Shown here one piece after another: positions 854-8,406 of a DNA stretch of 64,000 bases. How positions within the stretch are numbered: the stretch's first letter is position 1; every line of letters starts with the position of its first letter. The notes beneath the pieces are model-generated. The model was given only the letters and a program-made list of their open reading frames with translations. It was not told where the DNA came from and did no database searches. The translations under genes and the position numbers were made by a program. This DNA is from an uncultured Thermoplasmata archaeon (GTDB lineage Archaea > Thermoplasmatota > Thermoplasmata > RBG-16-68-12): assembly GCA_963768855.1 (NCBI GenBank), contig CAVYJM010000018.1:111626-175625 (forward strand). The letters are read 5' to 3'.

Positions 854-895
854 AAGATGCGGTTCGCCTTCAAGCGGGTTTGCAGCGGGAGAGGA

Positions 896-968
896 CGCCC
901 CGGTCGGGATTCGAACCCGAGCACCCGGCTCGACAGGCCGGGATCATAGACCGCTAGACCACCGGGGC
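896..968 (-). tRNA. tRNA-Asp(GTC)
   Basis: Reverse complement GCCCCGGTGGTCTAGCGGTCTATGATCCCGGCCTGTCGAGCCGGGTGCTCGGGTTCGAATCCCGACCGGGGCG folds as a cloverleaf with GTC anticodon and GGTTCGAATCC T-arm. Confidence 0.95.
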
Positions 969-995
969 AGTGGGCGATGGCAACTGAAGGGGGCT

Positions 996-1006
996 AATTA
1001 GGCTTT
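996..1006. repeat. Left copy of 11-bp direct repeat AATTAGGCTTT; putative att core overlapping the tRNA-Asp BRE/TATA
   Basis: Identical 11-mer at 8396-8406; lies 28-38 nt upstream of the tRNA 5' end and 35 nt beyond the integrase stop. Confidence 0.6.
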
Positions 1007-1041
1007 GGGACCGATATCGTGCTTTCCCGTGGTGCCAAATT

Positions 1042-2115
1042 TCAGTCCAGGGCAAGCGACTTCACCGCCTCGCGGTACGTCTCCATGGGCTGGAGGCAGT
1101 ACGCGTCCCATGCGTCGCGGACCGCCCAGGCGCCCTGTCGTTGCAGGAAGAGCTCGGGTACGCCTTGGAGGAGTCCGTGGGTGTTCGCGGACCGCCGGAG
1201 GGTGTGCGAGGACACACGGACCTTCAGCCCGGCCCGCGCGGCGTACTCCTTGAACCTCCGGTTGTAGAGGTTCAGGTACACCTTCTTCGATGTCAGCGGG
1301 TCCCGGAAGACCGGGTCCTCGGGCTGCGGGTCCTTGAGCCGTTTCCACTCCTTGAGCCGCCGGGCCAGGCCCGCGTCCAAGAGTTTCTCCGCGTTCCAGC
1401 CGTGCTTTGACGGCCGCGGGTACGTCACCTTGGGCGGGGGTCCGAGTTCGACCTGGCCCCACGTCACGGTCCACAGGTCCTCGTGGCGGCCGATGGTCGT
1501 CCATTGGAACCGCGCGGCGAGGGACCAGGCGAAGTCCGATTCGGCCTCGGCGACGGCGAGCACGCGCTGGAGGTCCTCCTTGGAGATAGGCGCCCGGTTC
1601 TCCTTCGCCCGGTTGACCTCCTCTAGGGAGTACCGCTCCAGCTTTCGCCCCAGGTCGCGCACGCCGAGCCGGTCGAGTTCGAGTCGGTCGACCGCGTGCC
1701 GGAAGAAGCTCTGAATCGCGGAGACCCACACGTTGACCGTGTTCGGCTTCAAGGGTCGCCTTGAGTTCCAGGCACGCCGGTAGGCCTCGAGGTCTTCCCA
1801 GGTGACCTCCCGGAGGTCGGACTTCCCGAGGGACGCCTCGACCCACTCGAACGTCGCCCGCGCCTTCTGCGTGTACTCCCGGCGCGTGCCGGGAGCCTTC
1901 CGCTCGAGGTACGCGTCCCACTTGTCGAAGACCGGGCGCCAGGCCACGCGGACCGTGTGCTCGTCGGGTCCGTTGTCGGTGTCGCTTGCCGCGGGCTGCA
2001 TCTCCCACGGATTTCGGTCGTCGTTCCTCAGAATGGGCTGAGGCAGCTCGTCGAGCGTCACGACCATGGAGACGGTCGCGCCGCTGGCGCTCTGCCACAC
2101 TTGGGTTTCGCCCAT
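1042..2115 (-). CDS. int: Tyrosine recombinase/integrase
   Basis: Catalytic set recognisable: TIGRHEDL (R), PSKHG (K), SHTLRR (HxxR), QGAW, DAYC (Y). Start at 2115 or 2067; the 487-aa ORF call over-extends the N-terminus. Confidence 0.9.
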   Translation of the reverse strand: MGETQVWQSASGATVSMVVTLDELPQPILRNDDRNPWEMQPAASDTDNGPDEHTVRVAWRPVFDKWDAYLERKAPGTRREYTQKARATFEWVEASLGKSDLREVTWEDLEAYRRAWNSRRPLKPNTVNVWVSAIQSFFRHAVDRLELDRLGVRDLGRKLERYSLEEVNRAKENRAPISKEDLQRVLAVAEAESDFAWSLAARFQWTTIGRHEDLWTVTWGQVELGPPPKVTYPRPSKHGWNAEKLLDAGLARRLKEWKRLKDPQPEDPVFRDPLTSKKVYLNLYNRRFKEYAARAGLKVRVSSHTLRRSANTHGLLQGVPELFLQRQGAWAVRDAWDAYCLQPMETYREAVKSLALD

Positions 2116-2212
2116 CTCTGCGCACGACGACGGCATGGGCCTCGGAGGCTTAGAACCTTCGGGAGGAGACCCGCCGGTCCGACGAGCGACAAAACTGTTG
2201 TGCGCAGAGATG
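2113..2212. repeat. Perfect 13-bp inverted repeat CATCTCTGCGCAC / GTGCGCAGAGATG, 74-nt spacer
   Basis: Arms at 2113-2125 and 2200-2212; one arm contains the putative integrase ATG. Confidence 0.7.
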
Positions 2213-2260
2213 TCGTGACGAGGGCCGACGGGTCGGTCATCGGGAGAGGCGGGCCGCGCC

Positions 2261-2509
2261 TTAGGACTTTCCATGGAGCCTCCCGAGGGCTTCGTGTACA
2301 TGCGCGTCCGTGAGCCGGCGGACGGGCTCGAGGCGCTGCATGGCGCGGAGTTCGTTCTGGGACTGGAGGGAGCGGGCGGATTCCTCGGCGAACATCGCGG
2401 CGAGCTCCTCGAGGGCCGCGCTGAAGGCGACGACGGCGGACTCGGCGACCTGGCCGTCGGCGAGGCGGAGCCGGAGGAGGCGGCGCACGTCCGCGGGGCG
2501 GACAATCAT
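2261..2509 (-). CDS. Histone-fold protein (82 aa)
   Basis: Three-helix pattern aligns by eye to archaeal histones: ADVRRLL (a1), QVAESA...LEELAAMFAEES (L1/a2), RRLTDAHVHEAL (L2/a3); ATGA overlap with the upstream RHH gene. Confidence 0.6.
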   Translation of the reverse strand: MIVRPADVRRLLRLRLADGQVAESAVVAFSAALEELAAMFAEESARSLQSQNELRAMQRLEPVRRLTDAHVHEALGRLHGKS

Positions 2510-2721
2510 CGCCAGCGCTCCCCATGGCGGATGGTCGCGAGCTCCTTCTCCTTGTAGGCCAGGAAGCTCAGGAGAGCGGCTCGGACAAAATTCGCCCGGT
2601 CCCGGAAGTGGAACTCTGGGGCATCGACGAGGGCGTCCATCCGCTCGATTTCGAAGCGGGTGACGCTGACCGTGACGATGTGCTCAGCTTCGACCTCGGC
2701 GCTCGCGTTCGTCTCGTCCAT
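2506..2721 (-). CDS. Ribbon-helix-helix (CopG/Arc-like) DNA-binding protein
   Basis: IVTVSV strand, RMDALV helix, RDRANFVRAALLSFL helix; GGAGG RBS upstream of ATG 2721. Confidence 0.75.
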   Translation of the reverse strand: MDETNASAEVEAEHIVTVSVTRFEIERMDALVDAPEFHFRDRANFVRAALLSFLAYKEKELATIRHGERWR

Positions 2722-3032
2722 GCTTGTCCTCCTGTTCTGGTCTGAAGGCCTTCGTCTGGACCACAAGCTCGATGAGGAACTGGGGCTCGCGTCTCGGCGG
2801 GCGGTCCTCGGGGCTCACGGTCGGTCTCTCCTTCGCCGCATGGCGGCCGTCGTAGGGGGTGCTCGCCAGAAGCGGTTCCAGCGCATCCTGGGCCTCTCGG
2901 GCTCCTGGCAGGCCCTCGGGCCCGTCTGGGGCGGAAGCGTTCCCACGGCCCTTCTCGTCGTTTTTCTACCGAAGTAGAAGGTGGGTGCGGGCCGGGCTGG
3001 ACCCGACACGACCCGCACCGTTGATTCGGAAC

Positions 3033-3253
3033 TCACGCCCGCCCTCCGGCGCGGCAGGGAGCACAGACGACCTCGACCGCCTCGACCTCGGTCACGGGAC
3101 CGCCGCGGTTCTTGGCCCCGAACCCGCTGCCGAGGAGGAGCGTCGTGATGAACGGCTTCCGGCATCGCTGGCACGCCGCGAGGGCGGAGAGCTCGAAGAC
3201 CAGGCCGCTGGTCCGCGCCCCGAACGCCTCCCGGACGAGCTTGAGGTCGCCAT
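3033..3253 (-). CDS. Small zinc-finger protein (CQRC...CAPC); start region apparently frameshifted
   Basis: GC3-rich frame with two CxxC pairs; ATG at 3253 directly follows the previous TAG but is one base out of frame. Confidence 0.45.
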
Positions 3254-3436
3254 CTAAATCGCCGCCGTCACGACCAAGTTCAGTCGCTCGGAGACCCGCG
3301 CGTGTCGCTCGACGACCACGTTCTTGACGTTCATGTCCGTGATGCCGTTCGCCACGAGGAACGCGTCGATGGCCGCCTTCTGCTGGGCGTCGGTCTTCGT
3401 CGCATCGACAGTCAAGACGAAGGCGTGCAAGACCAT
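3254..3436 (-). CDS. Hypothetical 60-aa protein of the element
   Basis: GC3-biased codons, GGAGG upstream of ATG, protein-like composition. Confidence 0.6.
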   Translation of the reverse strand: MVLHAFVLTVDATKTDAQQKAAIDAFLVANGITDMNVKNVVVERHARVSERLNLVVTAAI

Positions 3437-3438
3437 GC

Positions 3439-3569
3439 TCAGGCCTCCCGCCGCCCGCGGACCCGAGTGACTCCCGGAGGAGGCGGAGCTCCGCGCGGTA
3501 CGGGGCGACCGCCTCCTCGACGGCGAGTCGCGTCAGCCGCGACGGGCCTGGGCTGGCCTGCGAAGACAT
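3439..3569 (-). CDS. Small helical hypothetical protein (AVEEAVAPYRAELRLLRESL); stop requires one extra G
   Basis: N-terminal part of the 178-aa ORF 3033-3569; out-of-frame TGA at 3439-3441 just before the next ATG. Confidence 0.3.
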
Positions 3570-3880
3570 TCTACGCGCACCTCGACTACTTGGTGCGCCG
3601 CGGCGATGCGGCCCGCTCCGTGACCCGCACGGAGCGCGGCGGCGTGCGAGGCGTTTACCTGGAGGCGACCGAGGACGGCGATTGCGCGAGCGCCCGCGCC
3701 CGCGCGACCGCCTGGCGGGAAATCCAGGATGTCACGGGGCGGGCGCGATGGCAAGGGAGGGGCCTGACGCCGCGGGAGTACTTCGACTGCCTGGAGGCGC
3801 TGGCCCGCGCCGGGGGCTTCCCCCGAAGCCCGGGCCGGGGACAGCGACGCGCGGAGTCGGGCGTCACGTGGGGCGAGTGA
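3467..3880 (+). CDS. Possible winged-HTH protein; start uncertain
   Basis: ASAATGLGWPAKTFYAHLDYLVRRG resembles a wHTH recognition helix followed by a wing; GC3-rich frame. Confidence 0.35.
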   Translation: MTPGGGGAPRGTGRPPPRRRVASAATGLGWPAKTFYAHLDYLVRRGDAARSVTRTERGGVRGVYLEATEDGDCASARARATAWREIQDVTGRARWQGRGLTPREYFDCLEALARAGGFPRSPGRGQRRAESGVTWGE

Positions 3881-3883
3881 CGG

Positions 3884-4140
3884 ATGCCCGGAGGTCCGGT
3901 CGCCATCGCGGGCGGTATCCTCCTCGTCGCGGAGCGGTCTTCCTGGTCCTCGCCATCCTCCAGGCGCAAGCGGGCTGCCTCGTCAACGCGACGTGGATGC
4001 TGGGCGCGGCCGCACTCGGACTCGGGCTCGGCGGCAAGGCAACCGTCAACCTCCCCGGAGGCCTCGTCGTCGCGGGCCCCATAGGCGTCGCCCTCATCGT
4101 CGCCTCGCTCGTCATCGGCCGCATGTACGGCGGCTGCTAG
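3884..4140 (+). pseudogene. Small 3-TM membrane protein with a -1 frameshift at 3931-3932 (pseudogene or sequencing indel)
   Basis: MPGGPVAIAGGILLVA joins GAVFLVLAILQ...GRMYGGC if one G is added to GCGGAG, giving about 85 aa. Confidence 0.55.
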
Positions 4141-4413
4141 CGGCCCTCCCGTTTCGCCTCGAGGGCCTCGCCGCGACCCCAGGGCCGCTCCCAGGGCGTC
4201 CCGGTCGCGGGACGGGCCCGAGGCCGTCCTCGAGGCCGGGCGCGTAGGGCGGGTCTCCTGCGCGTTTCTCCACCTGACATCCCCCTCCATGGACGGACAG
4301 CGGTCCCTCCATGCGGGACGACGCGCTCATTCGCCGGGCGTCGGGCAGCCTGGCGTATGCTTCGGAAGGCCCTCGAAAGGACTATATCTCCGGGAACGGG
4401 GTGGGGAGCCTCC

Positions 4414-4881
4414 ATGCAACCACCGTCGGAACCGCCGAAGAGCCACATCTGGCAGCGGCACCCGGGGCCCGTGGCGGGTCTGGTCATCGTGGGCCTGTTC
4501 GTCGTCGGCCTGACGGTCCTCATCGCTTGGCACGGTTACGGACTGACCGAGCCGCAGGCCAACGACTTTCTCAGCGCCACGCTGACCGTCACCGTAGGGC
4601 TCCTGGCTGGCGTCTTCTTCGTCGCGCAGCTGGCCATCTCGTCGCTCGCACGGCATCCGGCCGACCCGCGGCTGGGAGACCGGGAGGGCTGGGTCCTCGT
4701 ATTCCTCCTCGACATCGGCGCATTGTCCCTCGCGCTGCTATTCGCGGCCGCGGGCCTCGTGGGCGCTTGGTCCGCGACCTCAGCCGTCGCGGCCGTGGCG
4801 TTCAGCTGGTTGGCCGGAATGTTCCTCATCGCCTTCGGCATCTTCTTCTTCTTCGGGCGTGCCCCGCCGGGCGCGAGCTAA
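4414..4881 (+). CDS. Hypothetical membrane protein (about 4 TM)
   Basis: Four hydrophobic segments; AAAGGACTATAT promoter-like motif about 30 nt upstream. Confidence 0.7.
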   Translation: MQPPSEPPKSHIWQRHPGPVAGLVIVGLFVVGLTVLIAWHGYGLTEPQANDFLSATLTVTVGLLAGVFFVAQLAISSLARHPADPRLGDREGWVLVFLLDIGALSLALLFAAAGLVGAWSATSAVAAVAFSWLAGMFLIAFGIFFFFGRAPPGAS

Positions 4882-6710
4882 ACTCCCGGATTCTGAAGCC
4901 CGGCGGGACACCGGGCGTGCCGTCTCGCGTTCGCACCAACGTACTCCTGGCCGGAAACGATGGGCTGATGACACGTCTCGCACACGCCGAGGACGAGCGG
5001 CCGCTCAGGAGGCCGATGCCGCTCCAGGAGGGGCCGGGGCGATGCGGGGCCGAGCGTCGACCAGGTGCTCGGGAAGACGACGGGGCCCGGCTTCCCGCGC
5101 TCCCGCGTCAGGGTGCGGGACGCCAGGGCGAGGGAATCCGGGAAGTCGTCGTGCCCTCCCGCGGCCGCGTGCAACATGAGGTTGCCGCTCGCCGAGATGC
5201 GGTACTCGAAGGACGCGAGCTCGCGGAGGAGGTTCGCTTGCTGGGGCAGCGTGAGCTTGTCCGCCTCGAGGGCGGCCTTCAGGCGCGAGTAGAGCTCGAC
5301 CTTGGACGGTAGGCTGAAGGTCACGGGCTCGACTGGGAGGCCCTTCGCCCGGAGGAGGTCGTTGACCGCGTGCGCGGAGGCGTCCGAGTAGATGCGGCGG
5401 AAGCGCCAGAGCCCATGCAGCCACGCGACGTAGGCGACCTGGTCGACGTACGACGTCCCCTCGAAGGTCTTGAGCCAGAGGACGCGGCCGTGGCCCGACG
5501 CGTCGACGCCGACGACCGTGAGCACGGTGCGGTCGCCGCCCTCGACCCTCGCCCAGTCCGCGCCGAGGTACCTCGTCATCGCGGCGTGCTCCTCGAGCGG
5601 CGTCTCGACCAGGGGGTAGGCCTGCACGGCGCGGGCGACGAGCTCGGAGGGGAAGTACGCGTTCTGCGAGGACAGGAACGCGGCGTGGTACTCGGACTCG
5701 AAGGACAGGGAGTCCATGGACGCCCGCTCCTTCTCCAGGAACGCGGGGGCGATGAGGGGACAGCGTTCCGCGGGGACGTGCGACCGTGCGTACAGCTCCG
5801 AGTTCCACGCCCTCCAGAGGAAGCCGCTCTGCCCGAACGGCGTCGAGATGAGGACGACCTTGCCGCCCTCCGACGCCGCCAGGAACGGGCCCGCGGCCTG
5901 GTACACGGACTCGTCGACCCACGCGGCCTCGTTGAAGACGAGGAGGGAGACGCGGCTGAAGCCGCGGATGGTCACGCCGCCGGACATGCCGCCCGGCAGG
6001 GAGTACACGCGGCTCGCGTTCGTCAGGGAGAGTTCGGAGGAGGAGAGGTCGACAACGGACTCGCGGAGCTCGCGCCGGGAGAGGGCGAAACCCTGGAGGC
6101 GTTCCATCCACAGGTCGCTCTGCCGCTGGGAGGGTGAGACGCACACGACGACCGCGCCGGGACGGACGACGGCGAGCCAGAGCGCGTACAGCGCGGTCAG
6201 GTGGTCCTTGCCGCTCTGCCGCGACCACACGAGGGCCGTGCGGTCGTGTCCGCGGATGAGCTCCAGGGCGTCGGCCTGGTAGTCGAAGAGGGAGACGCCG
6301 AGCCAGGTCAGGAACGCGGCCGGGTCCTCGACGAACCGGCGGACGAGGTTGTCGTCAAGACGCTCTATCGCGGGCTCCGGCTCTGGGGCGAGGCCGAGGA
6401 GGGACGCGACGCGGGCCGCCAGGCCGCCCTCCTCCCGCCGGGGGCGAGGCGGGCCGCCCGAGCCGGCGAGGGTCGAGGGCCTGCGGACGCCGAGGCGCGA
6501 CAGCCGCTGCCGGATGTTGTCCCGCGACGTGTCGAAGCGGTCCGCCAGGTACGCGGTCGACTTGCCCTCGAGGTACAGGTCCCTCAGGAGGGCGTCCTCC
6601 TGGGCCGTCCACTCCCTCGGACGGCCCGGCTTCCCGGTCACGACGGCACCTCGCTCCTCCCTGGAGAGGCCCGTGAATCCTCGAGGCGCGACCTCGACGG
6701 TTGAGGGCAA
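4878..6710 (-). CDS. terL: Terminase large subunit (Terminase_6-like) with N-terminal HTH and C-terminal Zn finger
   Basis: Walker A WSRQSGKD, Walker B LLVFNEAA, coupling motif ISTP, RNase H-like nuclease motifs YLGADWA / YSDAS / HDDFPDSLALA. Confidence 0.88.
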   Translation of the reverse strand: MPSTVEVAPRGFTGLSREERGAVVTGKPGRPREWTAQEDALLRDLYLEGKSTAYLADRFDTSRDNIRQRLSRLGVRRPSTLAGSGGPPRPRREEGGLAARVASLLGLAPEPEPAIERLDDNLVRRFVEDPAAFLTWLGVSLFDYQADALELIRGHDRTALVWSRQSGKDHLTALYALWLAVVRPGAVVVCVSPSQRQSDLWMERLQGFALSRRELRESVVDLSSSELSLTNASRVYSLPGGMSGGVTIRGFSRVSLLVFNEAAWVDESVYQAAGPFLAASEGGKVVLISTPFGQSGFLWRAWNSELYARSHVPAERCPLIAPAFLEKERASMDSLSFESEYHAAFLSSQNAYFPSELVARAVQAYPLVETPLEEHAAMTRYLGADWARVEGGDRTVLTVVGVDASGHGRVLWLKTFEGTSYVDQVAYVAWLHGLWRFRRIYSDASAHAVNDLLRAKGLPVEPVTFSLPSKVELYSRLKAALEADKLTLPQQANLLRELASFEYRISASGNLMLHAAAGGHDDFPDSLALASRTLTRERGKPGPVVFPSTWSTLGPASPRPLLERHRPPERPLVLGVCETCHQPIVSGQEYVGANARRHARCPAGLQNPGV

Positions 6711-6784
6711 ACTGTCATTATGTCACCAGGGGCCGCGTCACGGGCCCGGGGTTGCCCCGGCGACCTTTTTGTACGTGGGGAGCC

Positions 6785-7387
6785 GTGTCCGAGCCCGTGA
6801 AAGTCGCCACTGTCCTGGCAATCCTCGACCTCGCCATGATGGTCGTCCTCGGGGCCATCCTCATCCTCGGGTGGCTGTTTGCGCTGGCCTTGCGCGATGC
6901 GGCCTGGGCCGTCGCGGCAGCGACGATTGCCTTGGCCATGGCCACGATGTTCCAGCTGCGTCACTCGGCGGCCCTGTCGAATCAAACCAAGGCGCTCACT
7001 GAGGCCACCCGCGACCTCAACCGAATCGAAGAAAAGCGGGACCTCCAGGCCCGTCTCGGGAGGGCGATTGCCGCCGCGGACGCCTTTCTGCTCCTCAGCC
7101 CGGACGCGGTCAAGGTCAAATTCACACAGGGGATGGTCGACGCTCAATTCAGGGGCGGTCTCTACGCGCTCGCTAACTACACGGACCTGTTCTCCGACGA
7201 CGCCCGCAAGTCGCTGATGACCTGGCGTGACTACGTCGAAGGGCTCCATCCGTTCGAGGCGGGAAAGTACCTGTTCTCCTCGCCCTCCGGTGCGGACGGG
7301 GCGAAGCAGCCGGGCGAGGTTCGAGACCTTCAGACGCTCGTCGAACGCGAGGCACGCGCCTGGCGCGAGAGGCTCGTCAAGCTCTGA
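6785..7387 (+). CDS. Membrane-anchored hypothetical protein (2 TM, coiled coil, soluble domain)
   Basis: N-terminal hydrophobic helices then amphipathic helix; GTG start at 6785. Confidence 0.65.
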   Translation: MSEPVKVATVLAILDLAMMVVLGAILILGWLFALALRDAAWAVAAATIALAMATMFQLRHSAALSNQTKALTEATRDLNRIEEKRDLQARLGRAIAAADAFLLLSPDAVKVKFTQGMVDAQFRGGLYALANYTDLFSDDARKSLMTWRDYVEGLHPFEAGKYLFSSPSGADGAKQPGEVRDLQTLVEREARAWRERLVKL

Positions 7388-7419
7388 CGGGGGGTCGGGG
7401 TTCCCCGGCGAGTCGTTCG

Positions 7420-8310
7420 TCATGGCGATACCTCGGGAACCTTTCGGGGAACCGCACCCGCCTTCCCTCCCGTGCGAGCCGGGGAACCGTCCGGGGAACC
7501 GTGCTCCTTCATGTGCCGCTTGACCTCCCGGCGGAGCATGAGCATGGCCTCGGAGTTCTCCCGGACCTGGAGGGCGAGCGCCTCGAGCTTGGCGTCGCGT
7601 CCGACGGGCTGCCGCCGCTCGAAGAAGGCCTCGAGCTCGTCCCACGAGAGCTTGACCGCGGGCGGACGCACCTCGACGCGGGCGAGGGTGCCGCGTCCGT
7701 CCTCGTGGTTGTACGCCTTGAGGAGGAGACCCTCCGCGTCGAGGTAGGTCCGCGCCTCGACTCCCTCGAACCTCGCCGACGCCCCGTCCCGGAAGGCCTC
7801 GAAGGTCAGGGTGGCCTCCGCGTCCCGGTCGAAGGGGAGGCCGAGGAGGGCGAGGACGAGGTGTACCTCGGACAGGGTGAAGCCCCGCGGGGAGAGGAGC
7901 CGCAGCTCGAGGGTCGAACCGCCCACGACGACCTCCGCGGCCCCTTCGAGATGCGGCAGTGGGACCGCGGCGGTCAGCTTGTGGTCTCCGCGGTCCTTCC
8001 AGGGGCCGAGGGCCGCGAGCCGACCCGACGAGGGGAGGGAACCGGGGGAGACCGTGTCTGGGTCGGTTCCCCCGACGATGCGCACGTTCTGCAGGAGGAC
8101 GGGGCCGAGGAGCGAATCGAGGCTCGGCCGGTGAGCCTTGCGCCAATCATGAAGGAGCCGCTTCGCGTACCCCGTCGTCACATGGAGACGGGCTGCGACC
8201 TCGCCAGGTTTGCGGGCGAGCTCCGGGTGCTCGTCGAGGTAGGCGAAGACGCGAGCTCTTGCCGTGGGGGACGCGGTCGACGTTCGTTCGTCCCCCTGGT
8301 AAAGGTTCAT
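7420..8310 (-). CDS. HTH-containing protein, possible Rep_trans-like rolling-circle initiator
   Basis: N-terminal HTH (PGEVAARLHVTTGYAKRLL); TFEAFRD / KAYNH / ARVEVR echo Rep_trans motifs; GGAGG RBS before ATG 8310. Confidence 0.45.
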   Translation of the reverse strand: MNLYQGDERTSTASPTARARVFAYLDEHPELARKPGEVAARLHVTTGYAKRLLHDWRKAHRPSLDSLLGPVLLQNVRIVGGTDPDTVSPGSLPSSGRLAALGPWKDRGDHKLTAAVPLPHLEGAAEVVVGGSTLELRLLSPRGFTLSEVHLVLALLGLPFDRDAEATLTFEAFRDGASARFEGVEARTYLDAEGLLLKAYNHEDGRGTLARVEVRPPAVKLSWDELEAFFERRQPVGRDAKLEALALQVRENSEAMLMLRREVKRHMKEHGSPDGSPARTGGKAGAVPRKVPEVSP

Positions 8311-8395
8311 GGAACCCTCCGCGTCGACCATGTCAGAGAGTCCTCCGGCTGTCCGTCGAAAAATGAGAAAAAGGGTTCAGGGAACGACTATTTCG

Positions 8396-8406
8396 AATTA
8401 GGCTTT
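8396..8406. repeat. Right copy of 11-bp direct repeat AATTAGGCTTT; putative att core
   Basis: Identical to 996-1006; lies between the last element gene and the first host gene. Confidence 0.6.

Follow-up and report, generated by a model that had tools for sequence, protein, structure and literature searches.

An 82-residue protein encoded upstream of a tyrosine integrase gene, in a 7.4-kb mobile element of an uncultured Thermoplasmata archaeon, is almost certainly a histone fold, as judged from profile searches and predicted structures. We analyzed the 64,000-nt stretch of DNA that carries the gene (the window) together with related loci from the same phylum. The protein is a tail-less, high-GC member of the already catalogued 'Thermoplasmatota histones', matched on that category's description. 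The best explanation for our observations is an integrase-linked Thermoplasmatota histone that serves either as an att-site cofactor or as a regulator of int, a reading to which we give an even chance. Gene order and conservation make it quite likely that the function is tied to the integrase in some manner; that the protein is specifically a recombination cofactor, a proposal made by analogy, we put at a little under an even prospect.

Homologues and a predicted histone fold

The gene is located at 2261..2509 on the minus strand, where an open reading frame and its codon-position GC are joined by homologues, a profile, an AlphaFold2 model and fold searches. Its codon-position GC (0.80/0.45/0.89) is of the coding type, and its ATG shares 4 nt (ATGA) with the stop of the RHH-like ORF upstream. 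That the ORF arose by chance in GC-rich DNA, or is only a shadow of the antisense ORF 2273-2557(+), would be compatible with the similar GC pattern of that codon-aligned antisense frame and with a word-indexed protein search that returned no match except the query. However, HMMER, run exhaustively over 1.84 billion representatives, found 13 full-length homologues at 33–57% identity (lengths 56–94 aa, all but one 74–94 aa), the family numbers more than 35 members with conserved synteny, and the start/stop overlap with the upstream gene and the confident fold also oppose that reading. Homologues and a confident fold are seen for the minus-strand product alone, which identifies it as the real gene. 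The absence of a functional gene is thus exceedingly improbable, and the homologues and fold refute it for practical purposes. Single-protein and subfamily scans of genome contigs and IMG/VR yielded 0 relatives, with a method that detects close relatives only and says little on viruses.

Compared singly to Pfam PF00808, the 82-aa protein scored 18.6 bits (E = 0.0023) and did not reach the gathering cut-off of 21.4 bits; 7 of the 14 sequences (the protein and its homologues) matched PF00808 singly, and one relative, L009, exceeded the cut-off (26.4 bits). When the alignment of the protein and its 13 homologues was used as a profile (A1), the PDB sequences returned were exclusively histones, including HPhA (E = 2.4e-5), HMfA (2e-4), HMfB (1.2e-3) and many H2A chains. 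The alignment falls within residues 7–58 and places residues 8–47 on HPhA 12–50 and on HMfA/B 8–46, with Q20-V21-A22 falling on R19-V20-S21 of HMf. The register that the initial annotation had drawn by eye against HMf-type histones was therefore reproduced by HMMER with profile A1.

The AlphaFold2 model, calculated with alignment A1, has a pLDDT of 93.4 and helices at residues 5–15, 23–57 and 68–78, giving the helix–loop–long helix–loop–helix architecture (alpha1-L1-alpha2-L2-alpha3). The top Foldseek matches in the PDB were all histone-fold chains (NF-YB/C, H2A, NC2 and TAFs) with a probability of about 1, TM scores of 0.6–0.75 and modest E-values (0.05–0.2), as expected since the protein has only 82 helical residues. 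A Foldseek-independent comparison by VIA-align with 48,161 representative chains gave histone folds in all of its best 50 rows (a SAGA/TAF chain, Z 8.7; TAF11, 8.6; NC2, 8.2; HPhA, 7.8), and the HPhA match had an rmsd of 1.5 A over its complete 66 residues. Its neighbours in the ESM Atlas were PF00808 clusters; in BFVD, there were weak matches only, to giant-virus histones. The initial annotation had allowed that structure prediction might give another fold and that profiles might lack histone similarity; profile, AlphaFold2 model and Foldseek all returned histones. The distant member L125, which is 15% identical and has no Pfam match, is predicted to fold alike (alpha2 of 36 residues, L2 of 9) with a disordered tail (residues 81–97, pLDDT below 50), and its fold search was again topped by histone folds (TAF11, Z 9.3; HPhA, Z 7.6).

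Departures from nucleosomal histones

The nucleosomal archaeal histones (HMfA/HMfB and HPhA; PF00808) share the three-helix fold with the window protein, with alpha1-L1-alpha2 aligned at E = 2.4e-5 to 1.2e-3, and the L2 Arg-x-Thr is kept in the window protein's subfamily. Compared to HMf-type histones, alpha2 is about 7 residues longer in the 82-aa protein (35 residues in the AlphaFold2 model) and L2 has 10 residues, so that the insertion of about 10 aa before L2, as first described, is real and consists of about two added alpha2 turns and the 10-residue L2. The compact alpha2 and short L2 that permit tetramer and hypernucleosome stacking are not kept. The RxTxxxxD motif is incomplete: R65 and T67 are retained, and His72 (T67+5) occupies the position of the conserved Asp59, as had been noted from the sequence; this position is mostly Lys or Arg across the family. 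The position of the L1 'sprocket' Arg (HMfB R19) is Q20 in the window protein and Q, P, H or D in its relatives. With a pI of 8.5 and a net charge of +1, the protein is no more than weakly basic, and some relatives are acidic. It has no C-terminal tail, ending 4 residues past alpha3, with many relatives tailed. It is encoded in a mobile-element operon, whereas HMf-type histones come from a chromosomal single gene. With alpha2, L2, the L1 Arg and the alpha3 Asp all altered, the earlier classification as a non-nucleosomal histone variant is supported.

The L1 Arg of HMf-type histones enters the minor groove. As this residue is replaced (by Gln or Pro) and the alpha3 Asp is absent, DNA binding by the family may differ or be weak.

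We derived a residue signature from an alignment of 36 family sequences (A3). The most conserved polar positions are N52 (35/36), R55 (basic in 34/36), R65 (basic in 33/36), E34 (29/36) and Q58 (25/36). Positions 9, 10 and 13 are basic in 26–28 of the 36 members, and basic residues at 9, 10, 13, 64 and 65 are kept in 25–33; R10 and R13 align with the DNA-binding positions R10 and K13 of HMf. The alpha2 extension carries N52, R55 and Q58 as a family-specific patch. Dimer–dimer contacts in face-to-face histones are made by a conserved Asn and Arg close to where alpha2 ends (PMC11390915). By analogy, N52 and R55 might make such contacts, or dock the integrase, which we regard as a lead only.

The integration module of a mobile element

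The RHH-like gene, the histone-fold gene and the integrase gene make up an integration module that occupies the left end of the 7.4-kb element. The RHH-like gene (2506..2721, minus strand) has a weak match to RHH_8 (E = 0.016–0.028); its longest ORF begins at TTG 2766, and ATG 2721, which is preceded at 8 nt by GGAGG, is the likely start. A 66%-identical homologue of its product is found upstream in L003/L004. The integrase (1042..2115, minus strand) has a SAM-like N-domain (Phage_int_SAM_1, E = 2e-5) and a tyrosine-recombinase catalytic domain (PF00589, E = 7e-7), and probably starts at ATG 2115, with alternatives at 2067 or 2274. The 11-bp sequence AATTAGGCTTT occurs only twice in the window, as exact direct repeats at 996..1006 and 8396..8406, and bounds the element. 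A tRNA-Asp(GTC) gene, detected by ARAGORN at 893..969 on the minus strand, lies 73 bp past the integrase stop and flanks the element on its integrase side; the tRNA region itself gave no direct repeat, and the 11-bp repeat sits just outside the tRNA. These features agree with the initial annotation, which had placed the protein in an RHH–int block of a mobile element.

A public contig, L132 (ENA ERZ25039477 contig_139496, 7962 bp), carries a 99%-identical copy of the element that corresponds to window positions 1018-8349 and is circularly permuted, with the element's ends joined such that window position 1018 adjoins 8349. An excised circle, or a tandem form, would be expected to look like this. 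The junction lacks 68 bp around the 11-bp att core; the contig, which contains many indels, has a 707-bp insert at window position 3535/3539. Elsewhere in the element, a 610-aa ORF at 4878-6710(-) has a weak match to Terminase_6N (E = 0.0012), and no capsid or portal gene was found among the ORFs scanned.

Linkage to integrases across the Thermoplasmatota

We searched a profile of the family in 401 genomes of the class and 401 genomes of the phylum. Every full-length hit was followed directly, on the same strand, by a PF00589-type integrase gene (35 of 35 loci: window, L003, L005, L007-L013, L100-L117 and L122-L127), and the loci range from 30 to 69% in G+C content. The gap between the two genes varies from -34 to about +400 nt, with many at -4, -1, 0 or +1, and the integrases that follow the histone-fold gene in L003, L005 and L007 are 42–67% identical. 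The same gene pair was present on two further public contigs. The five hits that had no integrase matched model positions 1–46 only; four look like ordinary histones of 65–72 aa, and the fifth, of 314 aa, contains two histone-fold matches.

Distances between histone-fold proteins and distances between their integrases were correlated (Mantel test, r = 0.46; 0 of 5000 permutations as high). The correlation indicates that the two genes have diverged in step, as one module. The family is patchily distributed: 8/401 genomes of the class and 24/401 of the phylum carry it, some in several copies, as does 1 of 28 other genomes of the genus. A tRNA gene lies just 3′ of int in 12 of the 33 other loci. 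The genome of the window has about six recombinase loci, and a histone-fold partner is present at one only.

Several loci have additional features. In L111, a canonical histone gene (PF00808, 52.5 bits; 1227-1439) precedes the family's histone-fold gene (1459-1782) and the integrase gene (1752-2795), and in L102 a second, weaker histone-fold ORF lies upstream of the family gene; these extra histones may be heterodimer partners. L012 has a 51-aa ORF (1148-1303(-)) between the histone-fold gene and the integrase gene that by eye resembles an AbrB/SpoVT-type swapped hairpin. In L130 (6249-6791 and 10291-11346), and on the contig of the relative P0013, a partial integrase ORF is found at most a few kb upstream of the pair, and could reflect tandem elements or integrase remnants. 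An apparent fusion of histone fold and integrase (the 778-aa product P0036) was rejected as artefactual, having arisen from frameshift errors on a contig rich in indels.

A conserved, structured stretch upstream of the integrase

In the window's subfamily, the stop of the histone-fold gene and the probable start of int are separated by about 145–190 nt. In the window, this spacing contains a conserved, non-coding-looking stretch (2113..2260, minus strand) with two covarying helices. We compared it in an alignment of four or five sequences (A6: window, L003/L004, L005 and L007), in which the matching stretches are L003:3283-3455, L004:607-780, L005:8244-8417 and L007:1741-2022, and found 71 of 172 columns to be invariant. 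The spacer was also considered as an N-terminal extension of the integrase, and its frame is open in five loci, with an insertion of 108 nt in L007. However, its codon GC (0.64/0.67/0.68) lacks periodicity and third-position bias, unlike the body of the integrase gene (0.67/0.45/0.90), and its substitutions are spread evenly over codon positions; this candidate was rejected.

Helix 1 has 15 bp (2222-2238 with 2166-2180), with compensatory changes in three pairs and G-U pairs that fit the sense RNA strand. Helix 2 has 13 bp (2200-2212 with 2113-2125), with compensatory changes in five pairs, and was derived from the same four or five sequences that score its covariation. Across both helices, 98.6% of cells are paired and 8 pairs are compensatory, a result equalled in 0 of 500 shuffles and compared to 33–44% in slid controls. 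The 5′ arm of helix 2 is inside the loop of helix 1, a pseudoknot-like arrangement, and in every locus an in-frame ATG or GTG stands at the end of the 3′ arm of helix 2 (ATG 2115-2113 in the window). Rfam had no match to 2113-2260. A reasonable reading of the alignment is that the spacer may be a leader that masks the int start codon when transcription reads through. About 40 nt ahead of the probable int start, an A/T-rich box hints at an internal promoter for int. The spacer may, as a whole, be a translational control element of the integrase.

Chromatin proteins of the host

The initial annotation had pointed out that Thermoplasma acidophilum lacks histones and uses the HU-like HTa, and this comparison carries over in part: histones are indeed rare in the class, with PF00808 present in 5/201 genomes, two of them owing to the present family, leaving 3/201. 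But the host is not T. acidophilum. The window's G+C content is 64–71%, a host MoxR gene has its closest named relatives, at about 80% identity, in MAGs of uncultured Thermoplasmata/Thermoplasmatota, most of them from soil, and neither HU/HTa nor MC1 was found in the host genome (2.87 Mb, 93.6% complete) at the thresholds used. A published survey likewise describes histones as very rare in Thermoplasmata (PMC13260811). When the same genome was searched with PF00808, as had been proposed at the outset as a check for histones on the host chromosome, this ORF was the sole match and no canonical histone was detected. Alba (C8:46359-46544) was the only chromatin protein found.

Function of the histone-fold protein

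The fold, the basic residues of alpha1 and L2 and the invariant place beside int together point to a dimeric DNA-binding protein that would work with its cognate integrase. By reference to other histone folds, a handshake dimer would bind and bend about 30 bp of DNA. One possibility is that it then serves the att sites as an architectural or directionality cofactor, taking the part of lambda Xis/IHF though built on another fold; the other is that it regulates int expression. Contacts through the alpha2 extension would be with the integrase or with a second dimer. That the protein bends DNA and affects recombination is purely inferred. Nevertheless, conserved gene order indicates that it is probably a helper or regulator of integration and not a packager of the chromosome. 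A recombination-related role had been listed initially alongside silencing of the element and condensation of its genome, and we favour it over silencing or packaging because the integrase linkage is strict across the 35 loci.

Among the specific models, an architectural or directionality cofactor at att sites is the most economical, by analogy with lambda xis–int and IHF. Several observations weigh against it. The protein is weakly basic and lacks the L1 Arg and alpha3 Asp, with some relatives acidic; a review finds that characterised archaeal integrases work without directionality factors, naming as helpers only the non-essential SNJ2 Orf2/Orf3 (PMC8371274); and an integrase tree that includes the genome's other recombinases has long branches and gives no resolved clade of histone-linked integrases. 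In addition, about 145 nt separate the two genes in the window's subfamily, where operon coupling is not certain.

It is unlikely, if still deserving of weight, that the protein is instead a sequence-specific, NF-Y/NC2-like transcription regulator of int or of its own operon, acting alone or with the RHH protein and having no part in recombination. Such a regulator would fit the translational coupling to an RHH-type gene, the NC2, NF-Y and TAF chains among the top structural neighbours, the regulatory-looking stretch with its A/T-rich box just downstream, and the name of one family member, 'NFYB/HAP3 family transcription factor subunit', which was assigned by PGAP and is the one exception among public records that label the family's proteins hypothetical. 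But similarity among histone folds cannot tell functions apart, the genes upstream of the histone-fold gene vary among family members, and in most of them the histone-fold and int genes overlap, leaving no room for an operator. An element-encoded chromatin protein, one that coats, compacts or silences DNA or replaces the absent host histones and sits beside int incidentally, is improbable. The host's possession of Alba only, the basic residues kept at the DNA-binding positions of HMf alpha1 and the adjoining canonical histone in some elements (L111) would accommodate it; the invariant position 5′ of int and the co-divergence with the integrase are unexpected for a general packaging protein, and its low net charge and altered tetramer and hypernucleosome features (extended alpha2, no RxTxxxxD Asp) also disagree. 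A TAF-like protein–protein adaptor that does not bind DNA, and instead binds the integrase or a different protein of the element, for instance to set its stability or oligomeric state, is quite improbable. Its best structural matches are of the TAF11/TAF type (Z 8.6–9.3), its most conserved polar residues (N52, R55 and Q58) belong to the alpha2 extension rather than to the classical DNA-binding loops, and charge varies across the family, all of which an adaptor would explain, yet the conservation of basic residues at 9, 10, 13, 64 and 65 fits contact with DNA.

A broader form of the cofactor model is that the Thermoplasmatota histone folds are dedicated mobile-element integrase cofactors, in which the N52/R55 extension would dock the integrase or a second dimer and the pseudoknot-like leader would add a layer of control. 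We hold this composite proposal tentatively and consider it somewhat more doubtful than not. If true, archaea would gain their first recombination directionality or architectural factors, and site-specific recombination its first example of a recruited histone fold. A histone fold that travels with integrases bears both on the rarity of histones in Thermoplasmata and on the view that characterised archaeal integrases are helper-free. As a candidate archaeal integrase cofactor, the 82-aa protein is concrete and easy to express, and such a function is testable in a simple in vitro recombination system.

Comparison to known systems

The proposed arrangement resembles that of lambda Xis/IHF, where a small protein is likewise encoded directly upstream of int, often with overlap, and where a role in shaping att DNA would be the expected counterpart. 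The folds differ: lambda uses a winged helix or the HU/IHF fold, and here the predicted fold is that of a histone. Consistent with this difference, the 82-aa protein matched no HTH family in Pfam, including the HTH_17/winged helix of the Xis/Cox type, and no arm-type sites were identified. In the haloarchaeal SNJ2 system, as summarized in the review (PMC8371274), Orf2 and Orf3 are likewise small proteins in the integrase operon of an archaeal element, and they raise Int-SNJ2 integration by about 30% (Wang et al. 2018, via PMC8371274). According to the same summary, Orf2 is a coiled-coil protein, Orf3 is MarR-like and the host is a haloarchaeon, in which respects SNJ2 differs from the present system.

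The closest precedent is a category of histones defined by Schwab et al. 2024 (Nat Commun 15:7950, Supplementary Table 2; PMC11390915), the "Thermoplasmatota" histones, which have a considerably extended alpha2 and occur in an operon with a "Xer-like recombinase". The category is described in one line that notes an often present, disordered C-terminal tail and gives no function or mobile-element context. Its description fits our family feature by feature (the phylum, an extended alpha2 of 35–36 residues, the recombinase neighbour and the tails of relatives), and this kind of protein is therefore already catalogued; the window protein lacks the C-terminal tail, which is optional in the definition. 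The family is not mentioned in the main texts of two large surveys (PMC11390915 and PMC13260811), and our full-text search of the literature on histone folds with integrases, RDFs or Thermoplasmatota found nothing, leaving the supplementary table as the only prior description. The Cluster 5 histones (PMC13260811) were considered as the same group and rejected, as they are acidic quadruplets.

Two other minor prokaryotic groups in Schwab et al. 2024, the 'IHF histones' and the 'phage histones', are likewise defined by an operon partner or a viral context. The former differ in being bacterial, in having a dimerising C-terminal domain and in being paired with an IHF-like gene, and the latter in having a truncated alpha3 and a tetramerising C-terminal helix. 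Beyond the catalogued description, we add the family's residue signature, the co-divergence of histone fold and integrase, the covarying stretch between their genes, and the identity of the recombinase, which is a mobile-element integrase and not a chromosomal Xer. The recombinase-linked "Thermoplasmatota histones" belong to the integration modules of mobile elements, not to chromosomal Xer systems.
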